Below, piece after piece: positions 6,320 to 52,671 of a DNA stretch of 64,000 bases. The notes beneath the pieces were generated by a model. It was not told the DNA's origin. It saw only the letters and a program-made list of their open reading frames with translations, and did not search any database. Origin of the DNA: a phage. The stretch's first letter is position 1, and each line of letters begins with the position of its first letter. The position numbers and the translations under genes are program-made. The stretch lies in NCBI GenBank assembly GCA_012401045.1, contig GCA_012401045.1_4704.1; one strand, 5' to 3'.

Positions 6320-6383
6320 AGCCTCAAAAAAAAAAAACGAAAAAATAGGAAAACGGCGTTCATCCCTAAAAAGGATGAACGCC
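6320..6383 (-). terminator. intrinsic terminator (minus-strand sense)
   Basis: Perfect 11-bp stem 6355-6365/6373-6383 (GGCGTTCATCC...GGATGAACGCC), followed on the minus strand by a long T-run (A12 on plus strand at 6326-6337). Confidence 0.75.
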
Positions 6384-8194: not shown

Positions 8195-8233
8195 TTTAAC
8201 GGCATAAACCCTTCCTGCGTAAGGCAGGAAGGG
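8195..8233 (-). terminator. hairpin terminator
   Basis: Perfect 10-bp stem CCCTTCCTGC/GCAGGAAGGG at 8209-8233 with T-rich flanks on both strands. Confidence 0.5.
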
Positions 8234-8247
8234 CATACGGATTTGTT

Positions 8248-16560: not shown

Positions 16561-17024
16561 TTCTTACCACGTGTGTTATAATAGTAACGCTGACAAAGAT
16601 GTGTGTGACGATACTCCCGTTTGAACTCGACGCTGATAATGCGAGCAACTTCTCTCCAGTTAACCCCTTTACGTCGAAGTGCTGTAATACGGTCTGAAAT
16701 TTTGCACCATTCATCTGGGTCGTATCGTCGTAGCTTGAGTCGTCGTATTACGGAGGCGACACTCGCTCTCGATCGGCCAAGATGATTTGACAGTTGTTTA
16801 ACCGAGTATCTGTGGATATTGTCGCGAATATAGGAAATCTCGTTGTTCGTATATGCCTCATTGGTTCTCGACGAAGGGAACAGCATATACAACTTATTCT
16901 TAATCGCGCTTTCTGTGCGTTGAAATACAGAAGCCAGCTCACTAACCGGTGGTCTGGGTATCTGGTCCGCGTAATTCTCGAGGCGTGAGAGTTCCTCATC
17001 TGTCCAGCGACGGTATTTGCGCAC
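16494..17024 (-). CDS. Myb/SANT-like HTH repeat protein (array member 5)
   Basis: Track ORF 16494..17126 trimmed to a GTG start at 17024 preceded by AAAGGAG RBS; RWTDEELSRL repeat. Confidence 0.45.
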   Translation of the reverse strand: MRKYRRWTDEELSRLENYADQIPRPPVSELASVFQRTESAIKNKLYMLFPSSRTNEAYTNNEISYIRDNIHRYSVKQLSNHLGRSRASVASVIRRLKLRRYDPDEWCKISDRITALRRKGVNWREVARIISVEFKREYRHTHLCQRYYYNTRGKKWQQVKNTQQPKSHSYAETRAS

Positions 17025-17499
17025 GGGCAACTCCTTTGTTTTTCGTGTAGTAACACCAACGTTGATACAACGCATGTTTATTCGTTGTAATCCCAAATTT
17101 AACAACAACGTCGTATGTGATAACATTCCAATTTTGGGTGACGTTAAGTCGTTCCGCGATAAACGCGATAATCGCTTCCCGTTCTTGCTTTGTTAACGCA
17201 CGACGAATTCCATTAAGCCGTATAAACTGACGAACCGAGTCATACGAGCGGTTTAAATCGTACGCGATCTCACGCAGCGATTTTTGTTTGATTACGGACT
17301 TGATGTACGCGCGTTCTTCTTCCGTATAAGGTCGATGCTTTTGGCGTTGACGTATTCCCAAACGTCCCAGACGCGCGTCGATGCTGGCGCGTGTTCGTCC
17401 TGTCCGTTGTGCGATTTCATCAATCGTCATCGATGTGTTTAAGTACAGATGCGTGACGTCTTTCAGCTCGTCGTCACGCCACGGTTGAGATCGTCCCAT
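16996..17499 (-). CDS. Myb/SANT-like HTH repeat protein (array member 4)
   Basis: WRDDELKDV...IDEIAQRTGRTRASIDARL and YTEEERAYI repeats. Confidence 0.5.
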   Translation of the reverse strand: MGRSQPWRDDELKDVTHLYLNTSMTIDEIAQRTGRTRASIDARLGRLGIRQRQKHRPYTEEERAYIKSVIKQKSLREIAYDLNRSYDSVRQFIRLNGIRRALTKQEREAIIAFIAERLNVTQNWNVITYDVVVKFGITTNKHALYQRWCYYTKNKGVARAQIPSLDR

Positions 17500-17977
17500 C
17501 TTGTATCCCTCTTTTCTTTCTATGATGCCACCAACGCTGATAGACAGCTTGCTTCGTACGTGTTATACCGAAATGCGCATTAACCCGTTCAGCAATGTGG
17601 TGCCAATCCTGCGTTTCTTCCAACAATGTATCAACGAAGGCTACGAAGATCTTAGTATCAGCCTCGCTTAACCGCTTAAAACCATGACGGTGTGCTATCG
17701 TTTTAATACTGTTTGGATCCCTGTTTAAATCGCGTGCGAGCTGTTTATAACTTTTGTGTTTGCAGTGTGCTCTGATATATTCCAACTCATCGACGCTGAA
17801 ACGTTTATGTGGTTTACGACGTTCAACATTTAAGTATACCAACCTCGATTTAATTGCACCGTACGTTGTTTCCATGATTTCTGCGATTTCACGGATTTTT
17901 AATTTCGGGTGACGATAGTACAATTCCAGCAACTGTTCATCATCCTTACGATTCCATCGTCGTACTGGAGGTTTCAC
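17474..17977 (-). CDS. Myb/SANT-like HTH repeat protein (array member 3)
   Basis: Three repeats with spaced aromatic residues (W..DDEQLLELY, FSVDELEYI, DWHHIA...YQRWW). Confidence 0.5.
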   Translation of the reverse strand: MKPPVRRWNRKDDEQLLELYYRHPKLKIREIAEIMETTYGAIKSRLVYLNVERRKPHKRFSVDELEYIRAHCKHKSYKQLARDLNRDPNSIKTIAHRHGFKRLSEADTKIFVAFVDTLLEETQDWHHIAERVNAHFGITRTKQAVYQRWWHHRKKRGIQDGTISTVA

Positions 17978-17990
17978 AACGAGATTTCTC

Positions 17991-18458
17991 CTATTCTGCG
18001 CGTTTTAATGCTTGAGTGTAGTAGAGGCTATGAACACCGCTTAACGTGTAATGGGTGTTAAATTCGTTATTGATAATATTCCGTATTCTCTCCCAGGTGT
18101 TATTCTCTTTTCTAAGGGCGTGTATTCGATAATAAATCATCTCTCGACGTTGTGCTTTGCACGCAACAATACCGTAACGGTAGCAGAGTTTAGCGATTGC
18201 ATCCACGCTACGGTTGAACATCGCTGCAGCTTCTTTTACGCTGTGCGTCTTGAGATAATCGGCTAACATCACGCGTTCTTCGAAACAACAATAGCGATGA
18301 CGCGACGTGAGTTTCCAGCGCTTGCGATTACGGTTAATTCGACCTTGAACAGAGCCTTCTGTTCGGTCAAGCCGTGCCGCAATCTCTTGCATCGGGATAC
18401 CGTTTCGGTACAGAGTAATCAATATCGCGTCTTCTTCGGGTGTCCAGTCCTTGACCAT
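17991..18458 (-). CDS. Myb/SANT-like HTH repeat protein (array member 2)
   Basis: WTPEEDAILITLYRNGIPMQEIAARLDRTEGSVQGRINRNRKRW closely matches the Myb repeat pattern. Confidence 0.55.
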   Translation of the reverse strand: MVKDWTPEEDAILITLYRNGIPMQEIAARLDRTEGSVQGRINRNRKRWKLTSRHRYCCFEERVMLADYLKTHSVKEAAAMFNRSVDAIAKLCYRYGIVACKAQRREMIYYRIHALRKENNTWERIRNIINNEFNTHYTLSGVHSLYYTQALKRAE

Positions 18459-18470
18459 AGTGCCACCCCA

Positions 18471-21161
<2,691 letters not shown>

Positions 21162-21241
21162 AAAATTGTCAAAATGTACATCAGCATAACGCCCGTGCCC
21201 GCCCGCGATGGGAGGGACACAGGCAATACGCTTTTATTTCT

Positions 21242-21874
21242 TCAAGACTTCACGACGCATTCGACTTCGTCGTTCATATAAGCTTCGTATAACGACAGCA
21301 CTTCCTTCATTTTAATTTCGGGTAACGCAACGGAACGAATCGCTTTCAGGATATTCCGTGTTTGATGGTGTTTAACCTTCGCTTCACGGGATTTACAGAA
21401 TTGACGGATACAGGTATTAACCTTACCCCCTTCCGCACGTTCGAGGGCAACATGCAGTTTCAGGTCCAGTAATACTTCCGTGAGTTCCTGGGTGGCAGGA
21501 TCGTTACGAATAAGTCGCACCGTCCGTTCATCCGGATTCAACATCGTGAGGAACTGAAGCTTGATCTGTTCAGGTACGGGTTTCGTGTTCATCATGATGG
21601 CGTCAAACTGTTCCTTAACATCCAACTCATTGAACACATAACGTTCGATGTGTACGACGTGTGCTTTTCCCGACTCACCGTAAATCGCCATCGCACGATA
21701 GTCATCGAACAACACGACATACATCAGATCTTGTTCCGGTCCGATGGTACCATCCATGAGCTTCGGGGCGTGTTTCCTAAAGAAGCCGTAGCGAACCGCT
21801 TCATCCGGCATGAGCGTCCACGCATTAACGGGCTGTTTTACGAGTTCCATGTAACACCTCATCAAGATTATCAC
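21242..21874 (-). CDS. hypothetical protein
   Basis: 210-aa ORF; no motif recognised. Confidence 0.5.
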   Translation of the reverse strand: MIILMRCYMELVKQPVNAWTLMPDEAVRYGFFRKHAPKLMDGTIGPEQDLMYVVLFDDYRAMAIYGESGKAHVVHIERYVFNELDVKEQFDAIMMNTKPVPEQIKLQFLTMLNPDERTVRLIRNDPATQELTEVLLDLKLHVALERAEGGKVNTCIRQFCKSREAKVKHHQTRNILKAIRSVALPEIKMKEVLSLYEAYMNDEVECVVKS

Positions 21875-22133
21875 TTACGCCAGGCGGTACCACAATACCG
21901 GTACGAATCACAGCAGCAACTTCCTGCATGCCCTTACCCTTCAACGCATAGGTTTCATGTACCACATTACGTCGAGTCGTTAATCCAACAAATTTACATA
22001 CAACCATGTTGTTTTCTGAAAGATAAGCGGTGTCGAGTTCACCGTGCAACAATTCTTTTTCTTTGGTATCAATACCTAATAACGCAATTTGATAAGCAGA
22101 AAGTTTCCAATAACGCATAATCGTCCTATTCAT
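21825..22133 (-). CDS. hypothetical protein
   Basis: 102-aa ORF overlapping neighbours at both ends; start uncertain. Confidence 0.35.
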   Translation of the reverse strand: MNRTIMRYWKLSAYQIALLGIDTKEKELLHGELDTAYLSENNMVVCKFVGLTTRRNVVHETYALKGKGMQEVAAVIRTGIVVPPGVSDNLDEVLHGTRKTAR

Positions 22134-22953
22134 AAACTATCAAATATTCTGAAACCAAGTTTCTTGTTTCTACTTTTGCCGAAATCGTTCTTCGTACAGT
22201 TACGGGGTACAATTTTGTCGCCGAACTATAAATCTCTTCAGTCAACGCACAAGCACTGTTGCTAATGATTGTAGGAATTCCCCGCGAGCGCAAGTTGTCA
22301 GCCTTTTCTGCAAGATAACGATGATCGTCTAATGTAAACCCCTCTTGAGTATAGCCCGTAAACGATGCGGTGGGGGAAATGGGAATATAAGGAGGGTCGC
22401 AATAAACGACGTCACCCGGAACCACCTTTTCAAGATGCTTCTGGAACCCACCACTTACAATTTCTACCCCCCCCCCCTCGACGAAGGCAGCCTGAAGATG
22501 GTTCGCTGCCAGACGCAATTCCTGTTTCGGGAAATAGACGGTCTTATACCGCCCATGCGCAACATTAAATAAACCATCACGATTATAACGACATAAGCCA
22601 TTGAAACCGTAACGGTTTAAATACATGAAGCAAACTGCGCGTTCCCACGGATCTTCAGCGCGGTTAAAACGTTCACGTATCTCGTAGTAGCTTCTGACGT
22701 CGGTAGGATCCGTTTGAAAAAGACGTTCCACTTCTTCGATGAAAGATTCTGGACGCGCTAGCAACGCAGACCATACTGAGAGAATATCCTCATTCGCATC
22801 ACCTATCGAATACGCTGGGTACTTAAGAGCAAGCGTAACAGCGCCGGAACCAACGAATGGTTCAACAAGACGCTTTCCTTTAGGTAACACTTTTTCAAGC
22901 TCAGGGATAAGCCTGGTTTTGTTCCCAAGCCATTTAAGAAATGTTCTGCTCAT
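22126..22953 (-). CDS. dam: DNA adenine methyltransferase, Dam family
   Basis: N-terminal FLKWLGNK (Dam KWAGGK-like), EPFVGSGAV (FxGxG SAM motif) and catalytic DPPY; co-linear with E. coli Dam over its length. Contains an internal G11 tract. Confidence 0.85.
   Translation of the reverse strand: MSRTFLKWLGNKTRLIPELEKVLPKGKRLVEPFVGSGAVTLALKYPAYSIGDANEDILSVWSALLARPESFIEEVERLFQTDPTDVRSYYEIRERFNRAEDPWERAVCFMYLNRYGFNGLCRYNRDGLFNVAHGRYKTVYFPKQELRLAANHLQAAFVEGGGVEIVSGGFQKHLEKVVPGDVVYCDPPYIPISPTASFTGYTQEGFTLDDHRYLAEKADNLRSRGIPTIISNSACALTEEIYSSATKLYPVTVRRTISAKVETRNLVSEYLIVYE
22467..22477. repeat. homopolymeric C11/G11 tract inside the dam coding sequence
   Basis: Eleven consecutive C on the plus strand (G11 in gene sense) encoding E-G-G-G-V in frame. 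Confidence 0.9.
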
Positions 22954-23368
22954 CGATTGGCGTTCCGATAATGTTGATGACTATTTCCGTTCGAACCGGA
23001 TTGGTCAGTACGGCCTGCATGCGTTCAAGCATTGTTGGGTTATCCGTAACCACCACATCGGCGTAACACAACGGATGGCTTTCGAACGCTTCGGTATCAC
23101 TTACTAACAGAACACCCATCACATTTACGTATTGCGGTATGCGACCACGAATGCGTTGCCACATGTCTTGAGTAAGGTCCTCGCTTTCTAATGCAACCAC
23201 AACAACAGGACTGATATTTACCGGAAAACGCGGATGCACCGTACGACGAAATGTTATCCAGTTTTCGATGTGGGATAATGCAAGTTCGAGAGAACAGCAT
23301 TTTGGAGAAATCTGTATGTTTATTTGTTGAATCAATGAACGGGGGTTTTGTACAGTCTCTTCAGCCAT
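22934..23368 (-). CDS. hypothetical protein
   Basis: 144-aa ORF; no motif recognised. Confidence 0.45.
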   Translation of the reverse strand: MAEETVQNPRSLIQQINIQISPKCCSLELALSHIENWITFRRTVHPRFPVNISPVVVVALESEDLTQDMWQRIRGRIPQYVNVMGVLLVSDTEAFESHPLCYADVVVTDNPTMLERMQAVLTNPVRTEIVINIIGTPIDEQNIS

Positions 23369-24346
23369 TTACTTTTTCCTGAAAATCAATGTCGGTAAAC
23401 CATTCCTTACAGCATAGTACAACACTAAGAGGTTAATCTTGCCAGCGGATACCGTAAGCATTTTACGGCGACGTGGTAAACTAACCGGTACCGTCGACGC
23501 CATCGTCGCACTGTTCTTGAACGTTTGGGAATAACGTCGTAACGATGCTTCGCCTAACAACGGAAGGAAAAGATCTTCGGTAAGAATATCATCGCAGATA
23601 TACGTAATCGCAAGTAACGGCGGATTCCATTCGTTCAGGAATTCGAAAATCTCGTTTGCGATACCCAGCGCATTATTAGGAAGCGGAACCTCACGAACGT
23701 ATTTCTGATTGCCTTTATCCAACAGGATTCTTGACATACAGTAATCGTGGATTATACCCGCGATATCATCCGCTGTTTCTGCGCTCTGCATCAACGCCTG
23801 TGCTTCTTCCCAGGTCAGCTGACGTTTTGTTTCGTAGTAGGTTGGTTTCAAAACCGCGTAAAAATCATGGATTAAGCGACCAACGTCCCCACGGGTTTTC
23901 GCAGCCATCGCGATTGCGTACGCTTTCTTCTCCGCATCCGTTAAGATCTGATTACGCCACAGTTCATATTCGTCTAACAGCTCGGTGTATTTGGCAGTCC
24001 AGTCAGAGGAAAGATAATAACCAATACCGTCAATCAACGCATGTGTTAAAACACCCAGACGCTCGCGTCTTGGATCGACCGACGGCTCATAGACAAAAGG
24101 TAGCTTCGGTTTTTCAAAGCCGCTGGCTACGACGGTATCTGAAAAAGCGTTAGCGAAAACACCCATCGGTTTCCACGACGTAAGGAGATCCTGATACAGC
24201 ATTGGATGAACGTTATTAATCGCTGTGAGTTTATCATCGAAAAGACTCACGCTTGGATGTTCGGCATTCGCAAGCTCAAAATAAATTCTTTCGAGCAGCG
24301 CCTTTACCGCATCGCGTGTCTTATCGATTGGGCCAACAGAAGCCAT
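23369..24346 (-). CDS. hypothetical protein
   Basis: 325-aa ORF; no motif recognised. Confidence 0.5.
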   Translation of the reverse strand: MASVGPIDKTRDAVKALLERIYFELANAEHPSVSLFDDKLTAINNVHPMLYQDLLTSWKPMGVFANAFSDTVVASGFEKPKLPFVYEPSVDPRRERLGVLTHALIDGIGYYLSSDWTAKYTELLDEYELWRNQILTDAEKKAYAIAMAAKTRGDVGRLIHDFYAVLKPTYYETKRQLTWEEAQALMQSAETADDIAGIIHDYCMSRILLDKGNQKYVREVPLPNNALGIANEIFEFLNEWNPPLLAITYICDDILTEDLFLPLLGEASLRRYSQTFKNSATMASTVPVSLPRRRKMLTVSAGKINLLVLYYAVRNGLPTLIFRKK

Positions 24347-24360
24347 GTAAATTATCCTCG

Positions 24361-24615
24361 TTAAAAAGTACCCATGATCGATAGGGCAATATGGTCTTTA
24401 TTCGCACGCGCATTTAACGACATATTGAGACCGCTTTTCTTAATATGCCAACGTGCCACCAGTTCCGGTTGGTCAACGGAATACAACCCTTCTCGATGTT
24501 GATTCAACCATTTAGCAATTGGATGCAATTTATCAGGATCGACCACGCCCAATTCCAACCCACCGGGTGTTAATGGTTTAGAATAAAAGTCAAGTGCGTT
24601 CCGTAAAAAAGTCAT
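24361..24615 (-). CDS. hypothetical small protein
   Basis: 84-aa ORF; no motif recognised. Confidence 0.35.
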   Translation of the reverse strand: MTFLRNALDFYSKPLTPGGLELGVVDPDKLHPIAKWLNQHREGLYSVDQPELVARWHIKKSGLNMSLNARANKDHIALSIMGTF

Positions 24616-24817
24616 CCTCGATGCTCATCGTAGCATACCTACTATGCCAATTACGGCAAACACTACACCGACAGCACTATACGCAAGCAGCGCTTTAGCG
24701 ACCCAAGATTTTATTTCCGTATACTCTTCATTATTCACCATGTCTCACCTCGTTCGGTTGTTGTCTGATCTCATACCTTTACTTAAGCGTATCCCCGCCA
24801 TTAAGACGGGGTGCTTA

Positions 24818-25192
24818 TCACCAGAGACGATTACCTTCCTCGTCCCACCAAGCAATCGCTCGTGTCGACTCGAATGCGTTAGGGCGTAACGTCATACCCA
24901 TGTGGTCAACGATTAACCGCAACTCAGTACCGAACCATTCAATCGAGATAAACAAACCCTTCCGAATGATTGCTTGATAACCTGATAGCCGGTCAAAGAG
25001 TCGTTGAAAGATCTCATCGTGCTCACACGACGTTAACGCTTCCGAATAGCGTCGCATCGATTTTGCATCGCTAGGTAAACGTGTTTTACAGTCCCACCAT
25101 AACACAGCGTACATCAGTGCAGCATTACGCAATCGTAACGATTGAACTGGTGTTAGTTGTCGTCCTTCAACATCATCGATAATAACGTACAT
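24818..25192 (-). CDS. hypothetical protein
   Basis: 124-aa ORF; no motif recognised. Confidence 0.45.
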   Translation of the reverse strand: MYVIIDDVEGRQLTPVQSLRLRNAALMYAVLWWDCKTRLPSDAKSMRRYSEALTSCEHDEIFQRLFDRLSGYQAIIRKGLFISIEWFGTELRLIVDHMGMTLRPNAFESTRAIAWWDEEGNRLW

Positions 25193-25425
25193 TGCGTCTT
25201 ATTCCGCGTTTGTTTCCTTAACATGGACACATTCCGCATCGATAGTCACACCGGTAGAACGACTGGTCTCGTTGGTAGAATCAAATCCGCTGTTGAACAA
25301 CATTGCGAACGTGTTATTATCCATACGAGCAAAGGTCTCCGCAATACGATCGGGATGAAAATCGGTGCGGTTGATGGTCGATTTCACAAAAACTCCTATA
25401 AACAATTTAATTATTGGTATTAAGA

Positions 25426-25911
25426 TTAAAGCAGGATCTGCGGACAGCAGCACGATTCGTAACCACCTTCATGCGGTAACGTATTGCTGGTGTCAGGCCA
25501 GACAAGCTGAATACCTGCAACTTTTTTACCGTATCGAGCGAAAGCTGCTATCGCATACACTTCGTTGAAGGATTCAATATCCTCAATTTCGCGTACGTCG
25601 AGACGCAAGGTTTCACCCGTACCCTTCAAAGTCAGATTGCCATCGAACGCGCCTAACGGGATGGTCTTTGCCTTCACCATGAAGTTACCCAGTTTGTTGA
25701 TTGCTGAACCGAGGGCAGGACAGTAACCGGATACGAAGATTTCCGGCATTCCGTGTTCGGTTAGACCAACAGTATACATAAAGCCAGGCTCGTCGCTTCC
25801 CTCATCAGGAGCGACACTGATAATAGCCCATTGCTTTTTCTCGATATATTCTTCGATAAAATCGTCCAGTTTTGAAAAATTGTTTTCATTAAGTTTAACT
25901 GTGTTACTCAT
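25426..25911 (-). CDS. hypothetical protein
   Basis: 161-aa ORF ending in a Cys cluster (SCCCP); no motif recognised. Confidence 0.45.
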   Translation of the reverse strand: MSNTVKLNENNFSKLDDFIEEYIEKKQWAIISVAPDEGSDEPGFMYTVGLTEHGMPEIFVSGYCPALGSAINKLGNFMVKAKTIPLGAFDGNLTLKGTGETLRLDVREIEDIESFNEVYAIAAFARYGKKVAGIQLVWPDTSNTLPHEGGYESCCCPQILL

Positions 25912-26197
25912 GTTCTTTATCCTTTAAAGCGTTTTCTAACCAGCGGACATAACTTTCACGATAAAGGTGAATGTGTCTTTTACCGTCGCGAAAGTTAGGG
26001 TCAATGAGATGAATCGCAGCATGGGTTGAAGTCATCGCATGCTGTAAATGTTTTCGTGTTAATCGTCCAAGTTTTACCCAACGTTGAATATACCGTGCGT
26101 CTGCCGCTAAACAGGTACGTTCATCGATGAAAGGTACCAATACCTGAACGATACTACCGTAATACACCATCGAACTGTTGAACATCTGCGTCTCCAT
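25904..26197 (-). CDS. hypothetical protein
   Basis: 97-aa ORF coupled to the downstream gene. Confidence 0.4.
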   Translation of the reverse strand: METQMFNSSMVYYGSIVQVLVPFIDERTCLAADARYIQRWVKLGRLTRKHLQHAMTSTHAAIHLIDPNFRDGKRHIHLYRESYVRWLENALKDKEHE

Positions 26198-26215
26198 GCA
26201 AATGGATGGGGCGGA

Positions 26216-26524
26216 TTAGTGAAGAATTACTGTTTGCGACCCTTTCTCGTATTCGGTAAGTAACTCGTCGTACCGACGATCAACTACCATGATCGCATTA
26301 TCGATCTCTGTCATGTCTGATGCAACAGATCGTTTCGCTTCCAGTCGATATACTAACGCATCACGCATACCCTCAGCTGCAGCGAGTTCGCAAGTTGCTT
26401 GATGTTTATTATCCGAAAAGACGAAGAATGGTTTGTTTTCTTCATCAGCCAAGAAGTAGTCACGAATCGCAACCAACCTTTCTTCTGGAACCAGTTCACA
26501 ATTGTTTTCGTTCATTTTCATCAT
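26216..26524 (-). CDS. hypothetical acidic protein
   Basis: 102-aa ORF; no motif recognised. Confidence 0.45.
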   Translation of the reverse strand: MMKMNENNCELVPEERLVAIRDYFLADEENKPFFVFSDNKHQATCELAAAEGMRDALVYRLEAKRSVASDMTEIDNAIMVVDRRYDELLTEYEKGSQTVILH

Positions 26525-26529
26525 CTCTC

Positions 26530-26862
26530 TTAAAGTTTTAACGTATTGACGCCGCTTATAAAGGCGTTGATTTCATTGTCGATGTTACCGGTTTGCTCGA
26601 TAATCTTCTCCACCATCAATCTTGGTTTGTTATAAGCAATACTTACAGCATCGGGACCATTCCCATACATGCTCGCCACGTAAATTCGAAGTTCTTTTAA
26701 ACGATCAAGTAACAACTGCGCGATTTCCAGAACTTCTTCTGTAGCGGTCTGTACGTTGCATTCGCGTAACTTGTGCTCTAACAGCGAAGTCGCAGCATCG
26801 AGCATGGATGTGTATTTACGGTAGTTATAAATATCAATTATAGCTGTCTGATTCATATACAC
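26530..26862 (-). CDS. hypothetical protein
   Basis: 110-aa ORF; no motif recognised. Confidence 0.45.
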   Translation of the reverse strand: MYMNQTAIIDIYNYRKYTSMLDAATSLLEHKLRECNVQTATEEVLEIAQLLLDRLKELRIYVASMYGNGPDAVSIAYNKPRLMVEKIIEQTGNIDNEINAFISGVNTLKL

Positions 26863-26867
26863 GTTGT

Positions 26868-27236
26868 TTATTTATCGGGGTCTGGAAAATAGTAAAATCG
26901 CCAATGCAACATAGAAATCGCATTTCTTATTCGATTCGCACGAACACGACGTCCGAGAAAGGACTTGTAGCAAGAATCGCAATCCATAAACAACTCATGG
27001 CTCGATTTCATCAGAACCACGATATCTCTTATATACGAATTGCAGTACTCGATAAACGGGTCTGTATCGTACGTATATTTCCTCGCACTACCTATCCCCA
27101 ACTCTCTATTTAACTCACGACAATTTATCATAAGCTTCACATAACGGATAAGCCGAACGAAGTCACGTAAATTACGATTAAACCAATATCGATACCAAAA
27201 TGACTGTATACTCCGAACAGTTCTATTTAACTTCAT
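26868..27236 (-). CDS. hypothetical basic protein
   Basis: 122-aa ORF, Arg/Tyr/Trp rich. Confidence 0.4.
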   Translation of the reverse strand: MKLNRTVRSIQSFWYRYWFNRNLRDFVRLIRYVKLMINCRELNRELGIGSARKYTYDTDPFIEYCNSYIRDIVVLMKSSHELFMDCDSCYKSFLGRRVRANRIRNAISMLHWRFYYFPDPDK

Positions 27237-27864
27237 TGATACCTTCTATTAGTTGTACAGCAACTTCTTTTTCGGTGCTATAAAAGAACTTGCGGTGGAA
27301 CTGAACAAGAAGCTTTTCGAATTTACATTGAACGATCTTTTTGCGTTCGATGTGACCCAGGGAGAGCAAAGCACCCATGCAACGTACCGCTTGTTCGAGA
27401 ACCTGTTTCGCGGTATCGTGATCGTCCGGTAACGGTAAATCTTCCTCGTCATCTTTAGCGATAAGACGTCTAATGATGTTATCGATACGTATCTCATCAC
27501 CGTTAATGAAAGCGCCTTTCTCCCATTCATCAAATCGTTGATGGATTCGACGTTGTAAGTTGGCCCTGTCTTCCGTTAACTCTTTCAACTGGTTTTCTAA
27601 GTGGGATACGGTACGGCGGTCGGTTTCAGTGAAGTTTTCCGATTCTTTGTACCACCAATCATTACGCGCTTGTAAGTCATTAATGCGAGATATTGTCCGA
27701 CGACACTCACTAACAAGCCCATCACCATTCGGTAGCTCTGTACCGAAATAGCTTTTGTATTTATAACGCATAACGCGGATTAAACGTTTCGCTAGAAAAC
27801 CTTGTTTTTCCAGTTTCTTCTTCAGCTGTGTATATTTCTCTTCTTTTGTTTCCATTAATTCCAT
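27223..27864 (-). CDS. hypothetical coiled-coil protein
   Basis: 213-aa ORF with charged heptad-like stretches. Confidence 0.45.
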   Translation of the reverse strand: MELMETKEEKYTQLKKKLEKQGFLAKRLIRVMRYKYKSYFGTELPNGDGLVSECRRTISRINDLQARNDWWYKESENFTETDRRTVSHLENQLKELTEDRANLQRRIHQRFDEWEKGAFINGDEIRIDNIIRRLIAKDDEEDLPLPDDHDTAKQVLEQAVRCMGALLSLGHIERKKIVQCKFEKLLVQFHRKFFYSTEKEVAVQLIEGINEVK

Positions 27865-28253
27865 GATGTTGTACCTCGTTCAGCAATCAGGAGAGTCGTG
27901 GTTGTGCTTTTCACTAATCTATTAAAGTCTTGATATATCCGCCTGAGGGATTGTTTTAGATCGCAATAACGGCTGAAATAAACCTTCAAGTCATCTTTTG
28001 TCACTGTCTCCGTATTTATTTTCGTAGAAACACCGAGATCGATAAACTCTTTTCTTAATTGGGATAATTCATCAAGAAGTCGATGGTGGCTTAGATAAAT
28101 AACAGATTTATCGGATAACAACTCGCCGGTTATCCGGCTCTGGCGTTCATCGAAATATTGGAGCCGCCATTCAATTCGCTTACGTAATTTATCAAGTAAA
28201 TCAACAAAAGCGGTATAGCTGTTAACGGCTAGGTTAACTTGACTCGTTATCAT
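27855..28253 (-). CDS. hypothetical protein
   Basis: 132-aa ORF; no motif recognised. Confidence 0.45.
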   Translation of the reverse strand: MITSQVNLAVNSYTAFVDLLDKLRKRIEWRLQYFDERQSRITGELLSDKSVIYLSHHRLLDELSQLRKEFIDLGVSTKINTETVTKDDLKVYFSRYCDLKQSLRRIYQDFNRLVKSTTTTLLIAERGTTSWN

Positions 28254-28600
28254 TCCACTTTCTCCGTTATATGCTTTAAACTGTTACGTATGCTTTTCAA
28301 TCGATGGTTAAATCCGGAACGATAACATTTCCGTACATCCCGTGCTGCTCGCGCTTTATTCGCCTGATGAAGCTGTTCATTCACCTGCGACGCTATACGT
28401 AAACGCTCTAATAAAGACCTCAACCGAACGACAACCAACGGCTGTTCTTTCACCTTCTCTAGTTTGAGTAAATAGTCAATATGAAACTTTATTTCGATAA
28501 TCTGATTCCTGTTTTTGCGGTACTGATGAATATACCAACATCGACGAAAATAGGCGATGTTTAGCATCGGGTAGATCCTTTTCAACGCTACCTCCAACAA
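28250..28600 (-). CDS. hypothetical basic protein
   Basis: 116-aa ORF; no motif recognised. Confidence 0.4.
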   Translation of the reverse strand: MLEVALKRIYPMLNIAYFRRCWYIHQYRKNRNQIIEIKFHIDYLLKLEKVKEQPLVVVRLRSLLERLRIASQVNEQLHQANKARAARDVRKCYRSGFNHRLKSIRNSLKHITEKVE

Positions 28601-28785
28601 TACATCGGATTAGGCGCTTTATGGTATTTATAGATACCTACTTTCTTCTGTTTACCTTTACCTGGGCCTCGTTTAATACGTTTGTTATAAACACGATCCA
28701 AATATCGATCAACGATAAATCGGGATAAATACACCGGATCGATATAAGCCAGGGTACCCGCTTCTGTTTCTTCGAGACATTGCAT
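28588..28785 (-). CDS. small basic protein with KRGPGKGK motif
   Basis: 65-aa ORF with GAGAGG RBS; motif NKRIKRGPGKGKQKKVGIYKY. Confidence 0.4.
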   Translation of the reverse strand: MQCLEETEAGTLAYIDPVYLSRFIVDRYLDRVYNKRIKRGPGKGKQKKVGIYKYHKAPNPMYCWR

Positions 28786-28811
28786 GCGTAACCTCTCTTT
28801 CCTCTAAAAAG

Positions 28812-29015
28812 TCAGTCCAACATAAGCCATGGCATCGCTTTCGCGATAGAATCCACCGCAGCATTTGCGATCCTTCGTTCGGTGGTTGGTACCACATGCA
28901 CCACGAACCGTTTTCCTTTATTGCAACCTTTCTTGTGTTTTCCTTTGACTAAACGAACACCAATCATGTCGTTGATAACATGATTTAGTATATGGCGCTG
29001 TAGAGAATTAATCAT
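28812..29015 (-). CDS. small basic protein with KKGCNKGK motif
   Basis: Track ORF trimmed to ATG at 29015 with GGAG RBS; motif VKGKHKKGCNKGKRFVVHV. Confidence 0.4.
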   Translation of the reverse strand: MINSLQRHILNHVINDMIGVRLVKGKHKKGCNKGKRFVVHVVPTTERRIANAAVDSIAKAMPWLMLD

Positions 29016-29154
29016 CACTTTTACTCCAGGCCGAGAAGATTCTCGGTTTTAGTTCTATCTGTCCGCATATCCAGGTGTATCTCCATTTACCTTTACGAGG
29101 ACCTTTCTTATTTTTAACACCTATCAGAATACGATAGGGATATGACCAAGCCAT
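29008..29154 (-). CDS. small basic protein (48 aa) with KKGPRKGK motif
   Basis: Not in the supplied track (under 60 aa). ATG at 29154 preceded by AGGAG RBS; translation MAWSYPYRILIGVKNKKGPRKGKWRYTWICGQIELKPRIFSAWSKSDD; stop overlaps the next start. Confidence 0.35.
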   Translation of the reverse strand: MAWSYPYRILIGVKNKKGPRKGKWRYTWICGQIELKPRIFSAWSKSDD

Positions 29155-29184
29155 TCTAAACTCCTAAAATAAATCTCGATATTC

Positions 29185-29511
29185 TTAATGCAGTTGCTTC
29201 TTAAAACCTAATTTAAGAAGCGTCATTCTCTTGTCGATGGTATCTAATGCTTCCAGCAAGGATTCACGCTGTTCTTTCGTAAGCATATCGACGCGTAGAC
29301 GTTCGTTAATTTCCGCTTTAAGCTGTATAGGAAGGGTTTGTGTAAGTATGCTATCAGCCTCCATCTCGTAACTATTTTTCGGTGTGGGTAATGCTTCAGT
29401 AACACCAGTGAGATAAAAACCGATAGTGGTTACTCGTTCATCCATTGCTTCTAGCAGTTCAGAACTTACCTCATCCACGATAGTTCTCCGTATTAGGGTG
29501 GGCGTACCCAC
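29185..29511 (-). CDS. hypothetical protein
   Basis: 108-aa ORF; track start is GTG inside a hairpin, an internal ATG at 29445 is possible. Confidence 0.4.
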   Translation of the reverse strand: MGTPTLIRRTIVDEVSSELLEAMDERVTTIGFYLTGVTEALPTPKNSYEMEADSILTQTLPIQLKAEINERLRVDMLTKEQRESLLEALDTIDKRMTLLKLGFKKQLH

Positions 29512-29525
29512 CCTCAGTTGTTAAT

Positions 29526-30545
29526 TTACACCGCCACCTTAGCCTTGATAGCGGGGTGTGATTGATATCCGACGAACACAAAGTCTTCGTAACGGTAATC
29601 CGTAATACTTTCCGGTTTACGTACAATTGTTAGCTTCGGTAATGGGTACGGCTCACGGCTGAGCTGCTCTTTAACCTGTTCGAAGTGGTTGTGATAGATG
29701 TGGCAATCTCCACCCGTCCACACGAACTCACCAACGTCCATATTCAGCTGTTGGGCAAGCATATGTGTTAACAACGAATATGAGGCGATGTTGAACGGTT
29801 TCCCAAGCACCGTGTCGCACGATCTCTGGTAAAGCTGACAGGATAAAGCACGTGTTGGTACGTTATGTGCATTCAACCAAAGTTCCGTTTCACTGTGTCG
29901 TACATCATCCGTAACCCACTGGGTTCTTAATACGTCGTTGCGTTGAACATAATCAACACGTTCATCGATCGTGAGCTCGTGGGTATAGAACTGATAGAAA
30001 CTGTGGCATGGGGCGAGGTGCATATCGTCTAAATCGCCTACGTTCCACGCGCTAACGATGATTCGTCGAGAATCAGGATCTTCTTTAAGCTGACGCATCA
30101 CGTTTGCAATCTGATCGTGATGTCTAACATACACGAGGTGTTTTAGCATACCGTCATTAAGAATGCCGCAATACTCATAGCCGCGTTGCATCAACTCACG
30201 AGTACGTTCTGTATCGTGCGGAACAACCACTTTGTAGTCAATCCATTCCCGCCACTGCCTACCGTAAATCGGTCCTAGATTCCCTTCTTCGTCAGCCCAT
30301 TCATTCCAGATACGAACACCGTTATCTTGAAGATAAGCAACGTTTGTGTCGCCGTTAAGAAACCAGAGCAGTTCGTGGATAACGCTCTTAAGGTGAATCT
30401 TCTTGGTGGTTACCAGCGGGAATCCTTTCTTCAAGTCAAAACGCATTTGACGTCCGAATACCGAACGGGTACCGGTACCTGTACGATCGGCTTTATCGCG
30501 ACCGTTATCCATGATGTCTTGCAAAAGGTCCAAATACTGTCTCAT
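29526..30545 (-). CDS. thyA: thymidylate synthase (ThyA family) with two internal insertions
   Basis: Track ORF trimmed to ATG at 30545 with AAGGA RBS. Near co-linear with E. coli ThyA ([28 protein letters not shown], catalytic [21 protein letters not shown]), interrupted by insertions of about 35 and 45 aa. Confidence 0.85.
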
Positions 30546-30546
30546 G

Positions 30547-30786
30547 TTAATCCTTGTTTCGTTTTGTTGACAAGATCTTATATAAGCGTTCAGCTTGTTC
30601 GAGCATATAAACCGCACGCTTGGATGCGCTCAATACAGCACAGTAACCACGTAATACGAACAGTGCGTGGTCAATCTGTAAACCACGCACCTTTGGATCT
30701 GACGACAATTCCAATGAAGTACCATCAGAAATCCATAACTCGATACTCTCTTTTTGTTCTTTCGTTAATGCTTGTTTCATAATCAC
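30547..30786 (-). CDS. hypothetical small protein
   Basis: 79-aa ORF immediately upstream of thyA in the same orientation. Confidence 0.45.
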
Positions 30787-30849: not shown

Positions 30850-31731
30850 TCAATAACAGTTATAATGGGTTCCAAGCCGCTCCGGTTTTCTCAGAAGACT
30901 ATCTTTAAGCGGTACGACGTCGATATCAACGTTTTCTGAATAATAACCATTAGAACTACCATACCAACGAATAACAACACATCCTTTTGCTGTACGAATA
31001 TGGTAAAACGTCCATCGCGTACGTTTGCAAAAGTCGTCATCCTCGTCTCTTTCCTCGGTTCTTTCTTCAGCGCTAAGTATCTTCTCACCAATAATGTCGT
31101 TAAGATCGCCATCGATGTCTTCAAGGTACACTTTTTCACAGCAATCTTGCTTATGGCAGAATTCAACAACGTTCCCATCGCCCCGATAGAAAAGAAGGGC
31201 AATACTGTATTGTAGCTGTTCGGCCGTTAAGTCTGTGGCGCAATACAAACTTTGATCTTCGGTTATCACCAAGACATTGTTGATTACGTGTCCGGCAAGC
31301 GCTCCGATCTTATTTACCGTGATAATCGGACGAACCGGTTCAGGTTGAACGATAGGGATACGAACACAGCCAATTAAAGCCATCCGTCCTTTCTTTGGTC
31401 TAACCGCAAGGTAAGGTGATTTTCTTGGGTGGTTATGTAGTCGTATTTCTACCTCGTTGAATTTAATCCCGTATATACCCAAAAACCGATCGAACAGTTT
31501 ATGAAATTCCTCGGTTGCCTCTTGCAGTGTGATGTTATTTACCGTGAGTTTATGTCCCCTGAACACCCGGGTTAAATCGATAACATCCAGTGTTTTGAAA
31601 TATATTTCCGTAAGGGGATGATCGGTGTTTTCCAGGTAAGTAATTGTTCTTTGAACCACGATTTTAGGTTGTGCACCTTTAAAACGTTTCAGGTATTTAA
31701 CACGATAACGGGTATGATCTGATGTTAACAT
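30850..31731 (-). CDS. hypothetical protein
   Basis: Track ORF trimmed to ATG at 31731 with GGAGAGGAG RBS, removing overlap with the upstream terminator hairpin. Confidence 0.5.
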   Translation of the reverse strand: MLTSDHTRYRVKYLKRFKGAQPKIVVQRTITYLENTDHPLTEIYFKTLDVIDLTRVFRGHKLTVNNITLQEATEEFHKLFDRFLGIYGIKFNEVEIRLHNHPRKSPYLAVRPKKGRMALIGCVRIPIVQPEPVRPIITVNKIGALAGHVINNVLVITEDQSLYCATDLTAEQLQYSIALLFYRGDGNVVEFCHKQDCCEKVYLEDIDGDLNDIIGEKILSAEERTEERDEDDDFCKRTRWTFYHIRTAKGCVVIRWYGSSNGYYSENVDIDVVPLKDSLLRKPERLGTHYNCY

Positions 31732-31789
31732 TTTAATCTCCTCTCCCGACTTCAGAGAATTCTTAAAATCCGTTAGTTTTGATAGACAG

Positions 31790-31827
31790 GATAAGACGGC
31801 ATAAAAGCCTCCCGTAATGGGAGGCTT
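31790..31827 (-). terminator. intrinsic terminator
   Basis: 9-bp stem AAGCCTCCC/GGGAGGCTT at 31805-31827 followed on the minus strand by UUUUAUGCC. Confidence 0.6.
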
Positions 31828-31838
31828 CATTAATCAGC

Positions 31839-39746: not shown

Positions 39747-39812
39747 CTTTATCTCCTTAACAGGTGCTGGTAACGCAGCATAAACCCTCCCCGAAGGGAG
39801 GGCGATTAACGA

Positions 39813-43854: not shown

Positions 43855-43890
43855 AGCTCTGCCTGACATCAGGCAGAGCTTTATGCTGTA
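43855..43890 (+). terminator. intrinsic terminator after SNF2 helicase gene
   Basis: Perfect 11-bp stem AGCTCTGCCTG/CAGGCAGAGCT with 4-nt loop, followed by TTTATGCTGTATTTGTT. Confidence 0.75.
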
Positions 43891-43947: not shown

Positions 43948-45402
43948 ATGAAACTTAAACAAAGCTGGAAAGACGAACTTCTCGCGTTAGTAAACAGCAA
44001 AAACAGTTTACAACTGACATTAGACGATGTAAAATTTGAACTAACGGCACCGGTAAGCGAAGTGCCTGGAACGGTCGTTGTTACAATCAAACCGAACGAT
44101 AATAGTCGCTACTTTAACGAGCAGTCTCTGACCTACATCCGTCGAGACATCGCTAAAAACTTCACTGGGATCCCGTTACGGGTCATCGTTAAAAAAGATA
44201 CCGCTGTAAGGGATATCATCAATACGATTGCTGAACGTTACGGATTGGTATTTGACACAGCCGTCGACTTCCTCGAATCCGAGCTGAATAAACAAATTAC
44301 GTTCGCAGACACCGGTATTAAAGACATTACGGTTCCGGTTGCAAACACGTCTTATGTTTGGGCGGGTAATCTTCAGTTCAATATTGCTAACGATACGTTA
44401 AGCTTGATTACTATCATCAAGAAAACCGATCTTACGAATCTGGTTTATCTGGATGGTGTTGAAGCTGACACATCTGGTTCGTTACTATTAGCAACCGCAG
44501 CACTTGTTAACGAACACGTAAATGAACCGATGGTTGAAAACGAAGATATCGTTAATGAATTTATTAACGTTCTTAATACTCTAGCCAAATATGGTGACAT
44601 AACCGGCGATGAATTAGATGCCGCCTTACAAGCGTACGATGAAGCAGAAAACAGGAATAAAACCACGGTAATAACTCTTGGTGATATCCAGTGTGTTGCA
44701 ACAGAAAAAGACGATTGGGAAATTGGACGTTTACGCGGTCAGATGGTTCTCGCGCTCAAATCCGATAAATACCCGGAGCCCGATAACACGTTCAGGTTGT
44801 TTACGAATGGTGGTGACGTATCGCTAACGTTAAACACAATGAAAGATATAAGTATCGATTGGGGTGATGGGAATAAAGTAACGTTGGATGCTGAAGAAAG
44901 ATACGCGCACCACACATACGCCGACAATAACCAGTACCAAATCGAAATTGTGTCTCGTACGGACCCAGATGTGCTGCGACCAAATTATATTTCTGGGAGT
45001 GAGATAACCGAAGTAATTCACTGGGCTACTACTTCAACAATAGCTCTGAATTTTGTTGGATGCGATAATTTAGCGACTGTTCCAGATGAGATCCCAACTT
45101 CGTGGACAACGTTGGACAGCATGTTTGAAAGTTGTACGAATTTGAATGATCCGTCTATCTCTAACTGGAATACAAGTAACATCACATCAATGAATGGTAT
45201 GTTCGGCGGATGCACTAAATTTAACCAACCTTTAGCTGCCTGGGATGTCAGCTCAGTAACTGACATTGGTGGTATGTTTAACGGATGCAACAGTTTTAAC
45301 CAAGATTTAAGTGGGTGGCGATTACCGTCAGGAGTAACCCACGACAATTACGATAGTGGTGCTTTCTCGTGGCAGACGGAACATAAACCGACGTTCCAGT
45401 AA
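43948..45402 (+). CDS. DUF285/BspA-like repeat protein, paralogue of 31..1785
   Basis: N-terminus KLKQSWKDELLALVNSKN parallels STVYPEWKADLLALVNRKN; C-terminal repeats NWNTSNITSMNGMF...FNQPLAAWDVSSVTDIGGMFNGCNSFNQDLSGW. Confidence 0.65.
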   Translation: MKLKQSWKDELLALVNSKNSLQLTLDDVKFELTAPVSEVPGTVVVTIKPNDNSRYFNEQSLTYIRRDIAKNFTGIPLRVIVKKDTAVRDIINTIAERYGLVFDTAVDFLESELNKQITFADTGIKDITVPVANTSYVWAGNLQFNIANDTLSLITIIKKTDLTNLVYLDGVEADTSGSLLLATAALVNEHVNEPMVENEDIVNEFINVLNTLAKYGDITGDELDAALQAYDEAENRNKTTVITLGDIQCVATEKDDWEIGRLRGQMVLALKSDKYPEPDNTFRLFTNGGDVSLTLNTMKDISIDWGDGNKVTLDAEERYAHHTYADNNQYQIEIVSRTDPDVLRPNYISGSEITEVIHWATTSTIALNFVGCDNLATVPDEIPTSWTTLDSMFESCTNLNDPSISNWNTSNITSMNGMFGGCTKFNQPLAAWDVSSVTDIGGMFNGCNSFNQDLSGWRLPSGVTHDNYDSGAFSWQTEHKPTFQ

Positions 45403-45462
45403 AAAAAAAATAGTTAGCCTATCTTCCTCCCTACCCATAACGGGCGGGGAGGAAGGTTTTAT
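45401..45462. terminator. bidirectional terminator between convergent genes
   Basis: A10 run, stem CTTCCTCCC/GGGAGGAAG, then TTTT; sits between the plus gene ending 45402 and the minus gene ending 45474. Confidence 0.65.
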
Positions 45463-52620: not shown

Positions 52621-52671
52621 TTCCTTTAATCAGCATAAACATCCTCCTCCCACCACATGGGCAGGAGGAGG
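52621..52671 (-). terminator. hairpin terminator
   Basis: 8-bp stem CCTCCTCC/GGAGGAGG with 13-nt loop; moderately U-rich downstream on the minus strand. Confidence 0.45.

Follow-up and report, generated by a model that had tools for sequence, protein, structure and literature searches.

We analysed a 64,000-nucleotide stretch of phage DNA (NCBI GenBank assembly GCA_012401045.1, contig GCA_012401045.1_4704.1), hereafter the window, and within it a block of small open reading frames (ORFs) at 21242-29511. Our results suggest that this block is not one functional module but a composite of sub-blocks, which include a possibly switchable gene for a Dam methyltransferase and a mobile AT-rich core. 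We give this reading a probability of roughly 60%. The low-coordinate third (21242-24741) would be a virion-associated group that consists of a collar protein and small proteins, where the equivalents of gp123 and gp124 of phage Goslar are found at low copy in Goslar particles. Embedded in this group is dam, encoding an ancestral, dispensable adenine methyltransferase. An 11-G tract in a lineage-specific loop of Dam would make its reading frame unstable, such that polymerase slippage by one G could turn the enzyme off or on, and phage populations would become a mix of methylating and non-methylating variants. In some lineages dam would be locked on by an interrupted run, while in others it has been deleted. 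The middle (24818-26185) contains a DUF4262 protein and three orphan genes, and the AT-rich part (~26.2-29.5 kb) encodes ten small proteins, with a core that may move between divergent genomes via homologous recombination.

Goslar is a nucleus-forming jumbo phage of E. coli that belongs to the Chimalliviridae. The 8.3-kb block matched Escherichia phage vB_EcoM_Goslar with 95% identity across 85% of the block length. Judged from these alignments, it is the counterpart of Goslar gp123-gp140 (NC_048170, 124554-131618) in a Goslar-like phage (Goslarvirus, Chimalliviridae). Gene order, orientation and the flanking genes, an NAD-dependent ligase and thyA, are shared between Goslar and the window at ~95% nucleotide identity, and almost all genes of gp123-gp140 are annotated as hypothetical protein. 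The window retains two genes that are gone from Goslar, the Dam methyltransferase gene and an ORF of 132 amino acids (aa). Furthermore, a conserved 122-aa ORF of the window is unannotated in Goslar, where the RefSeq record has a 367-bp unannotated gap at its place. Gene calls for the block were taken from L004 (related loci are numbered in this way throughout), a Logan contig of run SRR10049324 that was 100% identical to the window across the entire block. The sources of the related contigs fit a preprint on Goslar-like phages, which mostly found them as 'persistent' infections in Enterobacteriaceae isolate assemblies (10.1101/2024.12.31.630880).

The first-pass annotation described the block as a run of about 25 small ORFs between dam and thyA. 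The minus-strand ORF chain is indeed unbroken from 29511 down to 21242, but it comprises 22 genes, namely 21 ORFs of 48-325 aa and a 38-aa transmembrane ORF at 24625-24741 that was overlooked owing to a 40-aa ORF cut-off. The placement between dam and thyA has to be revised as well. On its low-coordinate side, the block is flanked by an NAD-dependent DNA ligase (18784-20853; Pfam, 7e-79), then a 94-aa membrane-like ORF, and Dam lies inside the block at 22126-22953. Co-orientation is not a feature of the block in particular, since nearly the whole window is read from the minus strand (~85 of 90 crude gene calls). In line with the annotation, many of the products have a strongly basic (pI 9.2-10.7) or acidic (pI 4.6-5.1) character, and the region that it called AT-rich (about 26500-29200) coincides with the lowest-GC 3-kb stretch of the window (26501-29500; GC 0.405, against a mean of 0.453 and a standard deviation of 0.018). 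Junctions within the block mostly overlap or span <=30 bp, and there are only two larger spacers, of 76 bp (24742-24817) and 80 bp (21162-21241).

The block ORFs are real genes, the 122-aa ORF included, as their ratios of nonsynonymous to synonymous substitution (dN/dS) indicate purifying selection. Summed over the comparison with eleven related loci, dN/dS was 0.05-0.36 for every block ORF bar one (0.48, with very few substitutions), while thyA had 0.07 and the ligase 0.09.

The low-coordinate third contains the following features, all on the minus strand:

24625-24741, minus strand: 38-aa single-pass membrane mini-protein, gp128 equivalent (dN/dS 0.10)
24361-24615, minus strand: 84-aa basic ORF, gp127 equivalent (dN/dS 0.09)
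23369-24346, minus strand: 325-aa collar/whisker-filament protein, gp126 equivalent (PDB 11lc_M)
22934-23368, minus strand: 144-aa acidic ORF, gp125 equivalent, trace in Goslar virions (dN/dS 0.16)
22126-22953, minus strand: 275-aa Dam-family (D12 class) N6-adenine DNA methyltransferase by its matches in Pfam, TIGR00571, PADLOC and PDB 2g1p; intact
22467-22477, minus strand: G11 tract (C11 on the plus strand) within the Dam ORF, encoding part of E-G-G-G-V
21825-22118, minus strand: 97-aa basic ORF, gp124 equivalent, one peptide in Goslar virions (dN/dS 0.14)
21242-21850, minus strand: 202-aa ORF, gp123 equivalent; helical, DUF7740-like domain at the C-terminus (dN/dS 0.07)
21182-21224, minus strand: GC-rich hairpin with GTTATGCTG immediately after it, at the block's 3' boundary

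The family scores identify the Dam ORF as a Dam-family (D12 class) N6-adenine methyltransferase. It passed the thresholds of both Pfam MethyltransfD12 (PF02086; 1e-59, 202.7 bits against a cut-off of 22) and TIGR00571 (4e-76, 256 bits against 114.85), matched the PADLOC orphan MTase model (7e-88), and aligned over its full length with E. coli Dam (PDB 2g1p; E = 2e-68, 44-45% identity). Its catalytic D186-P-P-Y189 and its N-terminal FxGxG-type S-adenosylmethionine (AdoMet) motif E31/F33/G35/G37 match D181-Y184 and E33/F35/G37/G39 of E. coli Dam. Hence, contrary to the first-pass annotation, the block does contain recognisable catalytic motifs. The NCBIfam equivalog model NF008152 / PRK10904 gave only 270.7 bits against a cut-off of 441, and the nearest relatives beyond Goslar-like phages showed ~47% identity. 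By these scores, the enzyme is a member of the family and not a host-type enterobacterial Dam orthologue.

The phage Dam is probably GATC-specific. Compared to E. coli Dam, residues K9, W10, N120, L122, R124, R137 and Y138 are conserved, and K9, N120, L122, R124, R137 and Y138 are among the residues that we take to contact GATC in the 2g1p Dam-DNA complex. The window contains 283 GATC sites where 438 were expected (ratio 0.65), and among the 4-bp palindromes only CTAG has a lower ratio (0.62).

The dam-less genomes Goslar, L002, L005 and L008 have kept a ~26-bp relic of the 5' end of the gene, which indicates that dam was ancestral and was then deleted. Similarly, the 132-aa gene disappeared from Goslar by a clean gene-sized deletion, in which its start codon was reused by the next gene (gp135). 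We also considered that dam and the 132-aa ORF might be recent insertions in the window. We rejected this in view of the 5' dam relic, a divergence of dam between clades that matches that of its neighbours, and the use of the lost gene's start codon by Goslar gp135.

The G11 tract in dam is the sole G/C homopolymer of >=6 in all 64 kb, although G/C runs of 7-8 are usual in shuffled sequence. Other long homopolymers in the window are runs of A or T (A12 at 6326-6337, A10 at 45401-45410 and T8 at 58651-58658). Across the relatives, tract length and reading frame correspond exactly. In the window-type dam allele, G11 yields the full-length protein of 275 aa (ON: the window, L004 and L006), while G10 yields 162 aa (OFF: three assemblies) and G12 yields 174 aa (OFF: eight loci, among them three NCBI assemblies and four SRA runs). 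In a divergent allele (~72% identical), it is G12 that yields 275 aa (ON: L012), while G11 yields 176 aa (OFF: L009 and L011) and G13 yields 165 aa (OFF: L010). For both alleles, the tract is the only difference between ON and OFF copies of the gene. For instance, the ON locus L006 and the OFF loci L007 and L027-L032 all differ from the window by the same two substitutions. Each of the four Goslar-like Dam clusters formed at 90% identity holds both full-length and 162-176-aa forms, and many members of these clusters reside on contigs >200 kb from assemblies of E. coli O157, Salmonella and Shigella. Counted roughly, the listed cluster members, which are not a random sample, comprise ~90 ON versus ~60 OFF contigs. 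This pattern fits a slipped-strand contingency locus, and the poly-G tract of dam would then be a putative ON/OFF switch.

In a widespread allele, present in 18 contigs, the run is interrupted (GAG GGA GGA GGG GTA) while the peptide is the same E-G-G-G-V. The G homopolymer is therefore not forced by the protein sequence, and the interrupted allele looks as one would expect of a locked-ON form.

An alternative explanation might be that the differences in the poly-G run do not reflect a switch at all, but sequencing or assembly errors, or a dispensable Dam that decays at a fragile point without reversion. Homopolymers are error-prone in sequencing. Moreover, Goslar and three other genomes have no dam, the Dam forms in ~40% of the listed contigs are truncated, and the Dam of the host could render the phage copy redundant. 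Yet, the same OFF alleles recur in several independent assemblies from NCBI, ENA and SRA, and the run is perfectly kept between the two alleles even though their synonymous divergence is saturated (dS above 2) and the interrupted allele shows that the Gly codons are free to drift. Apart from the frameshifts, dam is under strong purifying selection (dN/dS 0.05), and long G/C runs are avoided everywhere else in the genome. We consider errors or one-way decay a doubtful explanation, and favour a tract that switches dam off and on, with a reversibility that we infer from these comparisons.

The second gene of this region with a clear assignment encodes a structural protein. The product of 23369-24346 matched PDB 11lc chain M ('Whiskers Protein gp126') with ~97% identity over residues 1-325 to 1-325 (E = 2e-216). 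On the strength of this match, the 325-aa ORF is the equivalent of Goslar gp126, a virion collar-filament protein that is also 325 aa long. In the cryo-electron microscopy study of the Goslar virion, 60 copies of gp126 were modelled; the collar filaments consist of helical arrays of further dimers that point outward, and they do not occur in PhiKZ (bioRxiv 10.64898/2026.04.21.720040). In label-free mass spectrometry of Goslar virions, gp126 was estimated at ~37-87 copies per virion, gp123 at ~5-12, gp135 at ~4-9 and gp124 at ~2-4 (from one peptide), with a trace of gp125 (bioRxiv 10.64898/2026.04.21.720040). The other block proteins do not appear in the part of this table that was analysed. 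In a second Goslar-like clade (L009-L012), gp126 is 322 aa long, and its gene, with only 62-67% nucleotide identity to the window, has diverged more than any other in the block. The same collar sequence is also found in PDB 36za chain 'on' (320 residues, E = 4e-213), labelled 'Tail sheath gp218', which is probably a labelling slip in this composite-virion entry.

At the other end of the block, the AT-rich part comprises ten genes (26216-29478) with small basic, acidic or helical products that are found in Goslar-like phages only:

29185-29478, minus strand: 97-aa acidic ORF, gp140 equivalent, first gene after thyA; longest ORF to GTG at 29511 (dN/dS 0.16; no family match)
29008-29154, minus strand: 48-aa basic ORF, gp139 equivalent, with a K-x-G-P/C-x-KGK motif (dN/dS 0.36; no family match)
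28812-29015, minus strand: 67-aa basic ORF (pI 10.7) with the motif KGKHKKGCNKGKR (dN/dS 0.30)
28588-28785, minus strand: 65-aa basic ORF, gp137 equivalent, with the motif KRGPGKGKQKK (dN/dS 0.22)
28250-28567, minus strand: 105-aa very basic helical ORF, gp136 equivalent; longest ORF to TTG at 28600 (dN/dS 0.13)
27855-28253, minus strand: 132-aa basic helical ORF, absent from Goslar; no family match above threshold
27223-27864, minus strand: 213-aa coiled-coil-like ORF, gp135 equivalent (dN/dS 0.15)
26868-27236, minus strand: 122-aa basic, aromatic-rich ORF, no Goslar RefSeq CDS (dN/dS 0.09)
26530-26856, minus strand: 108-aa acidic helical ORF, gp134 equivalent (dN/dS 0.11)
26216-26521, minus strand: 101-aa acidic ORF, gp133 equivalent (dN/dS 0.23)

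The core of this part is much more similar between clades than the low-coordinate DNA. Identity of L009-L012 to the window was 62-88% over 20000-25250, compared to 95-100% over ~26250-28500, where most 250-bp bins were 100% identical and synonymous divergence was near zero. Where the identity drops varies from genome to genome. In the same core, Goslar and L002 are 1-8% divergent from the window, with an ordinary dS of 0.03-0.19, and hence its synonymous sites are not frozen. The simplest reading of these alignments is that the core may have been exchanged by recombination between divergent genomes. Possibly, the near-identity could instead stem from constraint on a cis-acting DNA or RNA element that overlaps the ORFs, such as an origin, a packaging site or a regulatory RNA, without any recombination. 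This might seem plausible for the lowest-GC segment of the window with synonymous divergence of about zero in several genomes. Nevertheless, the ordinary divergence of Goslar and L002 across the segment and the differing ends of the identity tracts speak against it; moreover, no Rfam family was matched, and neither repeats nor an origin-like architecture were noticed. We therefore regard a cis-acting element as very improbable, and retain recombinational exchange.

As an independent indicator of this, exact copies of the proteins vary widely in their spread over the public collection (blocks/contigs). The 275-aa Dam was found in 1, the 325-aa collar protein in 5, the 124-aa ORF in 12, the 213-aa ORF in 19, the 132-aa ORF in 55, and the 122-aa ORF, the most widespread of the block, in 176. 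From the lineage restriction, the composition and the mobility of this cassette, we infer that the AT-rich part (about 26.2-29.5 kb) may be an accessory cargo region, most likely for host interaction, a putative role that none of our results contradicts.

Three consecutive tiny basic ORFs at 28588-29154 (65, 67 and 48 aa) have a K/R-G-P/C-x-KGK motif in common (KRGPGKGKQKK, KKGCNKGKR and KKGPRKGK), and could be a small family of nucleic-acid-binding paralogues. BLASTP among the block ORFs gave nothing significant, and this K/G-rich motif was the sole likeness.

The first-pass annotation interpreted the block as a set of host-takeover and anti-defence genes. In this explanation, the whole block would be expressed early in infection. 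It would account for products that are small, charged, lineage-restricted and without family matches, and for a core that is exchanged between genomes, while methylation by Dam is a classical anti-restriction device. Conversely, the 325-aa ORF, one of those listed as of unknown function, encodes a solved virion collar protein (PDB 11lc), and products of neighbouring genes were detected in virions. A conserved structural-protein homologue, named in the annotation as the finding that would speak against its own interpretation, thus exists for at least one ORF, gp126. Furthermore, the early-promoter motif of phiKZ (TATATTAC) was not enriched in the window, with 3 found versus 2.6 expected and none in the block, although this motif is that of phiKZ and may not be Goslar's. 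PADLOC matched the block proteins with methyltransferase models only, so that no defence-related family was found besides the methyltransferase, and the flanking thyA and DNA ligase are DNA-metabolism genes, not typical immediate-early genes. A single takeover set is therefore unlikely. What stands of this interpretation is, as conjecture, the putative host-interaction role of the AT-rich part, and Dam, a DNA-modification enzyme with a classical anti-restriction type of function; the block contains an anti-defence gene in that limited sense, though one that the annotation did not recognise. A composite block, with any host-directed function confined to conjecture about parts of it, remains our preferred reading.

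Several observations weigh against this preferred reading. The low-copy values of gp123, gp124 and gp135 fall in the range of dTMP kinase, an obviously non-structural protein in the same table; hence, these detections are only suggestive, and the proteins may be contaminants. Sequencing or assembly error can also produce variation in homopolymer length, and the tract pattern would also fit a dispensable gene that decays irreversibly where it is weakest. The case for GATC specificity is residue conservation alone, and two positions deviate from E. coli Dam, P134 being Ala and Y119 being Phe. L009-L012 were retrieved via their identical 132-aa protein, so that identity at the 132-aa gene is there by construction, and the near-identity of the core was measured on loci picked in this way, which makes its frequency in the population uncertain. 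Structure prediction of a cassette protein, tried with the 122-aa protein, yielded no usable fold. Finally, function and spacers are the only grounds for dividing the block into modules.

Between the virion-associated group and the AT-rich part lie four genes, with a hairpin on their low-coordinate side in the sole internal spacer:

25904-26185, minus strand: 93-aa basic ORF, gp132 equivalent (dN/dS 0.06)
25426-25911, minus strand: 161-aa DUF4262-domain protein, gp131 equivalent (dN/dS 0.05)
25199-25453, minus strand: 62-84-aa ORF (start codon uncertain), gp130 equivalent, with a hydrophobic N-terminus (dN/dS 0.48, very few substitutions)
24818-25192, minus strand: 124-aa ORF, gp129 equivalent (dN/dS 0.13)
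24793-24811, minus strand: GC-rich hairpin CCCCGTC...GGCGGGG

DUF4262 is a family without known function. The protein at 25426-25911 matched Pfam PF14081 (2e-18, 67.5 bits against a gathering threshold of 28) and phrog_17488 (2e-21), and tblastn against 50,697 phage records revealed a distant homologue in Ralstonia phage phiRSL1. A genome collection with one genome per species contained no relatives of this protein and was hence uninformative. One preprint states that DUF4262 is the Shedu nuclease domain. We rejected this as a probable typographical confusion, and PADLOC gave no Shedu match. The hallmark of Shedu is presumably DUF4263, not DUF4262.

For the gp123-like protein, the C-terminal ~85 residues matched three PHROG families that lack a known function, as well as small proteins from Erwinia phage AH06 and Proteus phage 10. 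The match of this region to DUF7740 (PF24886) scored 14.6 bits, below the gathering threshold of 28. The first-pass annotation proposed structure prediction with a fold search for each ORF; structures of two proteins were predicted, with limited success. In the AlphaFold2 model of the gp123-like protein (mean predicted local distance difference test, pLDDT, of 60.4), the C-terminal part resembles stand-alone DUF7740 proteins of many phages (BFVD, probability ~1.0, target template-modelling score up to 0.74), while a PDB fold search with this model found nothing similar. The model hence suggests a resemblance to DUF7740 only. The single-sequence AlphaFold2 model of the 122-aa protein was unusable (mean pLDDT 46.5) and was discarded.

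The remaining block ORFs, besides these two, Dam and the collar protein, had no match in Pfam, PHROGs or PADLOC, and a PDB sequence search gave chance-level hits only. In the tblastn search of the phage records, the DUF4262 protein and the gp123 C-terminus excepted, only Goslar was found. Exhaustive HMMER searching of 1.84 billion representative proteins with the 213-aa protein returned only Goslar-like sequences and coiled-coil noise. Because these searches match nothing beyond Goslar-like phages, ~twenty genes of the block are genuine Goslar-like orphans. NCBIfam matched Dam alone among ten proteins of the low-coordinate half, a search of IMG/VR gave Goslar itself and one close relative only, and complete E. 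coli assemblies gave no match.

Several spacers across the window contain a GC-rich hairpin that is immediately followed by (G/T)TTATGCTG, at 8202-8247, 21182-21224, 39776-39800 and 52631-52670, and on the plus strand at 43881-43888. TTATGCTG was observed 6 times in the window versus 1.5 expected. In phiKZ, the consensus of late promoters is TATG, and its G is the transcription start (PMC4666361). By analogy, the hairpin plus TTATGCTG elements may be junctions of a putative terminator and a TATG-type promoter of the non-virion RNA polymerase. One of these elements closes the block at 21182-21224, and the weaker hairpin at 24793-24811, a possible transcript boundary, divides the collar-gene group from the upstream genes. 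These boundary hairpins support, but do not prove, at least two transcription units in the block, and any statement on the timing of their expression is likewise conditional. A second motif, AGTAATC, was seen in 5 spacers. A scan for sigma-70 promoters found 17 sites versus 28 in shuffled sequence and was not used; fewer sigma-70 sites are expected, since the phage has its own RNA polymerases.

The neighbourhood of the block showed some further variation. Downstream of the ligase (~16800-18780; L004 12163-13958) lie four small ORFs with faint matches to Myb, sigma-70 region 4 and helix-turn-helix (HTH) domains, one of which is labelled 'SANT/Myb domain-containing' in Goslar. From these faint matches, they may be DNA-binding regulators. 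The thyA gene (29526-30545) is intact in the window, and is split into pieces of 249 aa and 99 aa in three relatives (L009 4600-6726, L011 3530-5656 and L012 2872-4998) by an ORF for a 284-aa GIY-YIG + NUMOD3 endonuclease. This looks like a td/I-TevI-type intron or a homing-endonuclease insertion, of the kind seen in T4. Immediately upstream of thyA, a small ORF (30500-30750) is only ~68% identical to every relative, so that it is the window that carries the divergent allele. Beside it, a DUF7448 gene (~293 aa, about 30850-31830) is present in the window and most relatives and is missing from Goslar.

Because their DNA is enclosed, jumbo phages that form a nucleus are considered mostly safe from restriction and CRISPR nucleases. 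In a phage shielded in this way, a Dam methyltransferase is therefore unexpected, yet this one is under purifying selection, carries a putative hypermutable on/off tract, and appears locked on in some lineages and is deleted in others. This suggests that the methylation state still matters to these phages, with an optimum that fluctuates. More tentatively, and with the odds somewhat against it, dam might be a genuine contingency locus that yields bursts mixing GATC-methylated and unmethylated genomes, as bet-hedging or as a viral 'phasevarion', and the AT-rich cassette might be a mobile accessory island under recent positive selection. If so, the mixture could hedge against both methylation-sensitive and methylation-dependent host nucleases while the genome may be exposed, during injection or in the early vesicle. 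Alternatively, it could serve these phages as an epigenetic switch to adjust persistent carrier-state infections, the state in which they mostly occur. Either way, it raises the question of whether chimallivirus infection has a window of vulnerability, or an epigenetic function of methylation. It would also mean that 'pseudogene' calls in many Enterobacteriaceae assemblies are switch states, which is relevant to phage therapy and to the reading of such assemblies. As such, the block is ordinary jumbo-phage orphan content, already unexplained in the Goslar record, and its ~twenty orphan genes would lend themselves well to functional screens. What is new is the mosaic pattern of its AT-rich core and the putative poly-G switch, which sits in an ancestral Dam gene of a phage that forms a nucleus.

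The phage Dam has the D12-class fold, the DPPY and the AdoMet-binding motif in common with E. coli Dam (2g1p) and T4 Dam (PDB 1yfj and 1q0s). It differs from E. coli Dam by an extra 7-residue loop insertion, which bears the poly-G tract. Contingency loci have been described in phages T2 (agt) and T4 (rIIA), and poly-G tracts have been cited for the receptor-binding proteins of Fletchervirus and a methylase gene of phage BBP-1 (bioRxiv 10.1101/2025.10.21.683753). That preprint does not mention Goslar-like phages or their Dam. As in T2 agt, T4 rIIA and BBP-1, the window has a homopolymer within an ORF and frameshifts between ON and OFF among near-identical genomes, and as in T2 agt and BBP-1, the tract lies in a DNA-modification gene. 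Unlike the phages of that preprint, the phage of the window is a nucleus-forming jumbo phage, its gene is of the Dam family, and the locus is known here from sequences alone. A similar comparison can be made with the phase-variable methyltransferases of bacteria (phasevarions; repeats in mod and other genes). The gene described here differs from these in being viral and in encoding a Dam-type orphan enzyme, without a restriction gene close by that could be its partner. It resembles them in its simple-sequence repeat within a methyltransferase ORF, in the stochastic ON/OFF states that such a repeat would produce, and in the occurrence of interrupted, apparently 'locked' alleles.

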